Source: a virus. Taken from it: a stretch of DNA of 30,191 nucleotides. How positions within the stretch are numbered: position 1 is the first letter of the stretch; each line of letters begins with the position of its first letter. The translations under genes were made by a program, and so were the position numbers. Positions 23,419 to 23,495 of this stretch are shown here, piece by piece. Below the pieces are notes generated by a model. The model had not been told where the DNA came from and made no database searches. It worked only from the letters and a program-made list of their open reading frames with translations. The DNA lies in UHGV virus genome UHGV-0176705, one strand, 5' to 3'.

Positions 23419-23495
23419 CCGCTGCTAGCTCATCCGGACAGAGCATCAACCTTCTAAGTTGACTGTGCGGGGTTCAAGTCCCCGGTGTCGGTCCA
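23419..23495 (+). tRNA. tRNA-Arg (anticodon UCU), phage-borne
   Basis: 77-nt cloverleaf folded by hand: acceptor CCGCTGC/GTGTCGG (4 Watson-Crick, 2 G-U, 1 mismatch), D-arm GCTC...GAGC with GG in the loop, anticodon stem TCAAC/GTTGA, loop CTTCTAA (anticodon TCT), T-arm CGGGG-TTCAAGT-CCCCG, discriminator T, genomic CCA. Confidence 0.7.

Follow-up and report, generated by a model that had tools for sequence, protein, structure and literature searches.

A structurally weakened tRNA-Arg(UCU) gene upstream of the lysis genes in a lambda-like Escherichia coli prophage

The window, by which we mean the whole stretch of 30,191 nucleotides that was analysed, carries a real arginine tRNA gene of a lambda-like Escherichia coli prophage, located just upstream of the lysis genes. 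It is an ordinary, weakened member of a common and already annotated phage tRNA family, and what distinguishes it is the state of this particular allele, which is promoter-less, solo and structurally weakened. We consider it probable that the gene is prophage cargo, namely a weakened copy of an argN-type scaffold with a UCU anticodon in the late-operon leader of an E. coli lambdoid prophage.

ARAGORN called exactly one tRNA in the 30-kb window, a tRNA-Arg with the anticodon tct at 23419-23495 on the + strand, which is where an earlier note, made from the sequence, had placed it. The gene and its anticodon are:

23419-23495, + strand: tRNA-Arg(UCU) gene, 77 nt, CCA encoded (ARAGORN, Rfam, sequence)
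23453-23455, + strand: anticodon TCT, reading AGA and, via wobble, AGG (ARAGORN, Rfam, sequence)

The Rfam model RF00005 matched positions 23419-23492 with 44.3 bits (gathering score 29; E = 1.7e-6 for the whole window and both strands), covering the full model from 1 to 71 and marking one non-standard acceptor pair. This match is far above chance. Homologues with compensatory stem changes occur in 1463 of the 5426 complete E. coli genomes, and at least 120 IMG/VR contigs carry them as well. The gene folds into a 7/4/5/5-bp cloverleaf that scores above the Rfam threshold, and its 7-bp acceptor stem is not fully paired. Read from the sequence, this stem (CCGCUGC/GUGUCGG) consists of C1-G72, C2-G71, G3-C70, a C4·U69 mismatch, U5·G68, G6·U67 and C7-G66, which are indeed the one C-T mismatch and the two G-U pairs that the note had described. 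The D stem is GCUC/GAGC with the D loop AUCCGGACA, including G18 G19 and A20, the anticodon stem UCAAC/GUUGA carries a 7-nt loop (CUUCUAA), the variable loop is CUGUG, and the T stem CGGGG/CCCCG carries the T loop UUCAAGU. U73 forms the discriminator and is followed by a genomic CCA at 23493-23495. Judged by ARAGORN, Rfam and the sequence, the note was also correct on the 77-nt cloverleaf, the TCT anticodon, the TTCAAGT T-loop, the GG in the D-loop and the genomic CCA. All nucleotides of the tertiary interactions (U8, A14, G18 G19, A21, U33, U54 U55 C56 and A58) are present. Two positions are atypical, C1-G72 and the 15-48 pair, which is U/G instead of the usual R15-Y48.

The E. coli arginyl-tRNA synthetase (ArgRS) recognizes A20, C35 and U36 or G36 as identity elements, and argU carries the mnm5U34/t6A37 modification. 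Since A20, C35 and U36 (the latter two within the U34 C35 U36 anticodon) and also A37 are present in the window tRNA, recognition by ArgRS and normal modification of the anticodon loop are plausible by analogy. Arg tRNAs of E. coli have A or G as discriminator, and the U73 of the window tRNA departs from this purine rule (A73/G73). Across the tRNA family the discriminator varies between U, G, A and C, and it is a minor element for ArgRS.

Over its first 4 kb, the window matches E. coli chromosomes with 100% identity, which identifies E. coli as the host. The following genes define the prophage map:

7566-8774, - strand: integrase (Pfam)
12828-13520, - strand: CI-type repressor (Pfam)
13568-13882: Cro-like gene (Pfam)
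14297-15811: Rha/Ash antirepressor region (Pfam)
16220-19423: replication genes, DnaB among them (Pfam)
19677-20060, + strand: Q antiterminator gene (PF06530, E = 1.4e-52)
20253-21350, - strand: OmpC-like porin gene (PF00267, E = 1e-154), between Q and the candidate late promoter
22151-23230, + strand: N6_N4 DNA methylase (PF01555, E = 8.5e-43), immediately 5' of the tRNA
23845-25052, + strand: lysis cassette immediately 3' of the tRNA, consisting of a holin (PF16931), a second holin (PF05449) and a GH108 endolysin
26354-29034: terminase (Pfam)

The map thus corresponds to the front half of a lambdoid prophage, with the tRNA situated in the late-operon leader. This Pfam context, together with the ARAGORN and Rfam calls, supports the note's reading of a phage-borne tRNA-Arg(UCU) near the late genes, between the methyltransferase and the lysis genes. 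The layout of Q, DNA methylase, tRNA genes, (stx) and lysis genes has already been published (PMC3491183, Fig. 5), and in Stx2 phages ileZ-argN-argO sits between Q and stx, so that the more general statement that lambdoid prophages often carry Arg tRNAs near their late genes holds as well. Two phages that share this Q, porin and methylase backbone (L133, 4352-4426; L134, 4291-4444) hold a tRNA-Gly, or Thr plus Gly, in the slot of the window tRNA. The slot between methylase and holin is therefore a cassette position with interchangeable tRNAs. A porin gene is also found in DLP12 (nmpC) and in phage PA-2 (lc), at what we take to be the corresponding position.

Two other parts of the map deserve mention. 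Rfam detected isrK (55.4 bits) next to the C4 antisense RNA (84.4 bits) at 15206-15394, adjoining the Rha/Ash genes; the lambdoid prophage thus contains an antisense immunity module of the P1/P7 type. Beside the prophage lies an island (177-5443) encoding a HEF_HK/HATPase protein, a Response_reg_2 protein and a second integrase, so that two integrases stand in tandem (4172-5443 and 7566-8774). The AGA/AGG use of this island is extreme and reaches 56% of its Arg codons.

The family was collected with a search pattern built from the D and anticodon arms, in which variable positions were left free. Besides the IMG/VR contigs, of which at least 120 matched, the pattern found eight loci in the GTDB species representatives, four of them in E. 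coli, four in Shigella flexneri and none elsewhere. The relatives in complete E. coli genomes were detected by blastn at a minimum of 80% identity and number at most five per genome. A megablast search of 23300-23620 against 50,697 phage records gave no match, as its 28-nt words are too long for this divergent family; a search via the cluster did detect the family in those records. Altogether, 133 copies were collected, representing 25 alleles. ARAGORN analysis of all loci revealed the usual cluster to be Met/Ile2(CAU), Arg(UCU) or "Lys"(UUU), Thr(UGU) and Gly(UCC), separated by spacers of 1-4 nt. In these relatives the cluster promoter is TTGCAA-17-TATTAT or a close variant, with its start just 5' of the first tRNA. 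Just 5 of the 133 loci hold a solo Arg(UCU). In the window the gene stands alone: the ileZ-type gene that heads the cluster, the promoter of the cluster and the Thr and Gly tRNAs are all missing, and homology to the cluster-bearing relatives starts at about the 5' end of the tRNA.

Pairing within the family was counted on 24 distinct alleles and for the acceptor and T arms only, because the search pattern had fixed most of the D and anticodon arms. Standard pairs filled 97.6% of the cells, compared to 29-54% with the partners slid, and double-sided changes were present at 3-70 (GC/AU), 4-69 (CG/UA via UG) and 51-63 (AU/GC). The alignment points clearly to purifying selection on the structure of the family. 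At pair 4-69, the window is the sole unpaired allele among the 24, and an acceptor mismatch of any kind occurs in only 4 of the 133 copies.

The commonest allele of the family (62 of 133 copies, for example L002, 6003-6079, and L010) has the anticodon loop CCUUUAA with the anticodon UUU. ARAGORN and RefSeq call it tRNA-Lys, and C33 replaces the universal U33. In all seven distinct UUU alleles, the T stem contains an A51·C63 mismatch and U73 serves as discriminator. By its sequence, this allele is an Arg scaffold with a switched anticodon, and it may be of relevance to tRNA-Lys-targeting nucleases. Another relative (L003, 5001-5077; L004, 4992-5068) is 85.7% identical and has a C49·C65 mismatch in the T stem. 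It adjoins the iroBC salmochelin genes and the STnc100 sRNA in an apparent prophage remnant of some E. coli strains.

The names ileZ, argN and argO were taken from the GenBank annotation of a Stx2a phage, for which ARAGORN assigned the anticodon UCG to argN and UCU to argO. By descent, the window tRNA is an argN-type scaffold carrying a UCU anticodon, since 62 of 77 positions (80.5%) are identical to argN of the Stx2 phages (933W/Sakai type) and identity to argO and argU is only 62%. The window tRNA shares with argN the C1-G72 pair, U73, the D loop AUCNGGACA, the 5-nt variable loop and the encoded CCA as well as its placement, 3' of Q and 5' of the late genes. The two differ in the anticodon (UCG in argN, UCU in the window) and in two compensated pairs of the anticodon stem (27-43 and 30-40). 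Furthermore, argN has a fully paired acceptor stem and follows ileZ in a promoter-driven cluster, whereas the window copy is solo with an imperfect stem.

The UCU alleles of the E. coli/Shigella clusters (for example L006) and the solo allele L001 are 85.7-97.4% identical to the window tRNA and have the same anticodon and D arms. L001, the solo allele of E. coli E9 and annotated as tRNA-Arg in RefSeq, also shares the whole gene arrangement, while the cluster alleles have partner tRNAs and the TTGCAA-17-TATTAT promoter, both missing from the window. In comparison to all of these, the window tRNA has G69U and C5U. The argO gene and the host gene argU (dnaY, tRNA-Arg4 UCU) have the same anticodon, presumably decode AGA/AGG as well and contain A20, C35 and U36; in argU the anticodon loop is identical, too. 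In contrast to the C1-G72 and U73 of the window tRNA, both have G1-C72 and G73, and at 62% identity each, their lineages are unrelated to that of the window tRNA beyond general tRNA similarity. The anticodon stem of argU also differs (ACGAC/GUCGU versus UCAAC/GUUGA). The argU sequence is present in 5425 of 5426 E. coli genomes with a median of one copy.

Two substitutions account for the state of the acceptor stem:

23488, + strand: U69, a derived G-to-T change turning the C4-G69 pair into a C·U mismatch, common to contig L137 (alignments, pair counts)
23423, + strand: U5, a derived C-to-T change turning C5-G68 into U·G, private to the window

The window allele is unique among the 133 family copies scanned, and U5 is missing from the other 132. 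Its nearest allele, L001 (CCGCCGC/GUGGCGG), has an intact stem with one G·U pair and occurs in three complete E. coli genomes and one IMG/VR contig, with methylase, terminator, palindrome, tRNA and holin in the same order as in the window. Because the stem of this closest allele is intact and pair 4-69 covaries in the family, the imperfect acceptor stem is a derived state of the window lineage and not a family trait. The metagenome contig L137 carries G69U and keeps C5. The tRNA change aside, its flanks differ from those of the window by a single change in the length of a T run over about 1 kb, which makes C5U the sole substitution between the two across this distance. As L001 is intact, L137 has G69U only and the window has both changes, we infer that the substitutions arose in the order intact, G69U, G69U plus C5U. 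A sequencing error as cause of the mismatch was rejected, since the same G69U is present in L137, an independent contig. The T69 allele was not found in any of the 5426 complete E. coli genomes. We also rejected C5U as a compensation for G69U, because it affects the neighbouring pair and lowers the stability further. With the mismatched pair treated as open in the cloverleaf energies, the three alleles compare as follows:

L001 (intact): Rfam 52.0 bits, acceptor pair probability 0.98, cloverleaf -28.7 kcal/mol
L137 (G69U): Rfam 46.6 bits, acceptor pair probability 0.45, cloverleaf -21.5 kcal/mol
Window (G69U + C5U): Rfam 44.3 bits, acceptor pair probability 0.13, cloverleaf -19.1 kcal/mol

The stem of the window allele now contains three consecutive non-Watson-Crick positions (C·U, U·G and G·U). 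Its cloverleaf is not the predicted minimum-energy fold, either alone or with the 5' leader, and together with the leader the 5' half of the tRNA is predicted to pair elsewhere. The argN-type scaffold overall reaches 52-56 bits on the tRNA model versus 65-72 bits for its ileZ, Thr, Gly and argO neighbours, and RefSeq nevertheless lists family alleles at 44.4-45.9 Rfam bits as normal tRNAs and not as pseudogenes.

The surroundings of the gene contain the following signals:

21596-21730, + strand: candidate late promoter TTTACG-16-TATGAT (21596-21623), small terminator and Chi site (promoter scan, sequence, L006 alignment)
23355-23382, + strand: intrinsic-terminator-like hairpin and T run in the gap between methylase and tRNA, kept in L001, L123 and L137
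23385-23406, no strand assigned: perfect 22-bp palindrome CGATATGGGAATTCCCATATCG, 12 nt 5' of the tRNA (sequence)
23666-23829, + strand: run of terminator-like hairpins from the tRNA to the first holin, with sites at 23666, 23692 and 23805

The region 21300-24000 contains 11 terminator-like sites compared to 2.9 expected; one of these hairpins (23355-23376) immediately precedes the tRNA, and at least three separate it from the holin gene. A scan of the + strand between methylase and tRNA (23231-23418) detected no promoter-like site, and two promoters picked by eye, TTGTTA-17-TATTTT and TATGAT (around 23322), were rejected for lying upstream of the terminator or being too weak. With terminators on both sides and no local promoter, we infer that expression of the tRNA depends on Q-mediated read-through. 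The segment 21596-21730 is homologous to the one directly 5' of the tRNA cluster in the E. coli relative L006. Based on the consensus match and this positional homology, it is a candidate for pR'/tR', at the position expected for them.

The 18-nt core of the palindrome occurs once in the window and in at least 120 IMG/VR contigs with at least 20 different flanking contexts. Some of its copies fall within ORFs that resemble KilA-N on inspection by eye, and there the core encodes DMGIPIS; in that frame the palindrome of the window would read DMGIPISED. In L001 and L123 the palindrome varies at its outer pair, both sides of which have changed so that pairing is kept. The palindrome may be a gene relic or a recombination joint. 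A second RNA gene or a tRNA remnant at 23496-23700 was rejected, as a low-threshold Rfam search gave only sub-threshold noise and the fold z-score of this segment was -0.18. The Chi sequence GCTGGTGG occurs 14 times between 11542 and 27550, always inside the prophage and 11 times on the + strand, whereas shuffles expect 0.79. Chi sites flank the tRNA slot at 21712, 22028 and 23188, and one lies inside a terminator hairpin (23810).

The earlier note had suggested comparing the use of AGA/AGG between the prophage late genes and host genes, and this comparison bears out the expected bias. Counted with the same crude caller for both sequences (greedy longest ORFs), and with only about 6.5 kb of late genes in the window, AGA and AGG together make up 13.8 of every 1000 codons among the late ORFs, 13.4 among the early ones and 4.0 in a 50-kb E. 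coli housekeeping control. The two codons are thus about 3.4 times commoner in phage ORFs than in host genes. Both the codon bias and the single-copy host argU fit the classical role of a codon supplement.

A cargo tRNA of this kind would act as follows. After induction, Q-modified RNA polymerase would start at the late promoter near 21.6 kb, pass the terminators, the methylase gene and the tRNA, and continue into the genes for lysis and morphogenesis. The tRNA, whose CCA is already encoded, would be freed by RNase P and 3' trimming, and ArgRS would probably charge it via A20, C35 and U36. The charged tRNA would then supplement argU, the single tRNA-Arg(UCU) of the host, at AGA/AGG codons. In the lineage of the window, recombination would have deprived the copy of the ileZ-type gene at the head of the cluster, of the promoter and of its Thr and Gly partners, and the acceptor stem has acquired G69U, followed by C5U. 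Owing to the loss of partners and promoter and the gain of both substitutions, we expect the window copy to provide little or no functional tRNA in comparison to its intact relatives.

We regard another reading as possible but on the unlikely side: the gene is a decaying relic and effectively a pseudogene, real by descent and drifting without promoter and partners, with the acceptor-stem hits as the first damage. Both substitutions relative to the nearest allele weaken the acceptor stem, and the window is among the rare exceptions to clear purifying selection, as only four of the 133 copies have any acceptor mismatch. The acceptor pairing probability of 0.13, a cloverleaf that differs from the minimum-energy fold, the missing promoter and the absence of the T69 allele from the complete genomes all fit decay. 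However, the D, anticodon and T arms, the tertiary nucleotides, the anticodon loop and the CCA are all untouched, and the ArgRS identity elements lie outside the acceptor stem. G69U also persists, as the allele was seen in a second, independent sample. Some natural tRNAs tolerate single acceptor mismatches, and RefSeq treats alleles of equal Rfam score as normal tRNAs. Moreover, two substitutions are too few for a statistical case of relaxed selection. Taken together, the balance between a tRNA of reduced function and a relic is roughly even.

It is improbable, in our view, that counter-defence and not codon matching is the main task of the gene, which would then serve as a nuclease-resistant replacement or decoy for a host tRNA-Arg(UCU) cut by a tRNase of the host or of a rival prophage. 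In the anticodon loop, where escape mutations usually arise, the window tRNA does not differ from the host tRNA; codon bias alone accounts for a UCU tRNA, and a solo, promoter-less and structurally weakened copy is unlike a gene under active arms-race selection. To our knowledge, there are no nucleases of tRNA-Arg(UCU) beyond colicin D. On the other side, phage tRNAs have been shown to rescue from nucleases, namely Thr(UGU) from P2 Old, Lys(UUU) from PARIS AriB and Tyr from retron-Eco7 (PMC12445682), and a more general proposal is that of escape via the anticodon loop (PMC10264068). The in vitro substrates of P2 Old include Arg tRNAs (PMC12445682). The nuclease-resistant tRNAs of this type (T5/coliphage Lys(UUU) against PARIS, Thr(UGU) against P2 Old) are, like the window tRNA, phage-encoded isoacceptors of low-abundance host tRNAs; Thr(UGU) is among the usual partners of the family, and the UUU-anticodon allele in the same cluster is built on the same scaffold. 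The anticodon stem of the window tRNA is also unlike that of argU. By eye, and compared with the 'CNG' motif of P2 Old (PMC12445682), the stem UCAAC/GUUGA of the window has no C28-N-G30, which supports neither sensitivity nor escape. For the family as a whole, a part in counter-defence is conceivable.

A bolder version of this idea, to which we assign a very low probability, takes the argN-type scaffold as an anticodon-switching tRNA chassis that is kept mainly for nuclease-resistant replacements or decoys (against P2 Old, PARIS or HepS-like enzymes). The opened stem of the window and L137 would then have been selected, for example as an escape from an acceptor-stem tRNase or as a decoy, and would not reflect decay. 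It draws on the occurrence of the anticodons UCG, UCU and UUU on one backbone and on a slot in which Thr(UGU) and Gly(UCC) are exchanged as well.

The idea of a chance tRNA-like fold, or of a fragment of a host tRNA or attachment site, has only the modest Rfam score in its favour. It is next to impossible and was refuted by hundreds of homologues in the same prophage slot and by covariation. The gene is also full-length, is just 62% identical to argU, and lies in the interval from Q to the lysis genes, some 15 kb away from the integrase of the prophage (7566-8774).

Rare-codon tRNAs in the late region of lambdoid/Stx prophages have reportedly been known since the 933W sequence, and as the family is routinely annotated, one more member has little weight alone. 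The value of the prophage cargo tRNA lies in three points. Its descent can be placed, with the sequence comparison pointing to an argN scaffold with a UCU anticodon. A stepwise weakening, apparently from intact to G69U to G69U plus C5U, is captured after the loss of promoter and partners. Finally, the slot between methylase and holin is shown to hold interchangeable tRNA cassettes. The three natural alleles are a ready-made series for the question of how much acceptor-stem damage a phage tRNA tolerates and for that of decoding versus counter-defence.
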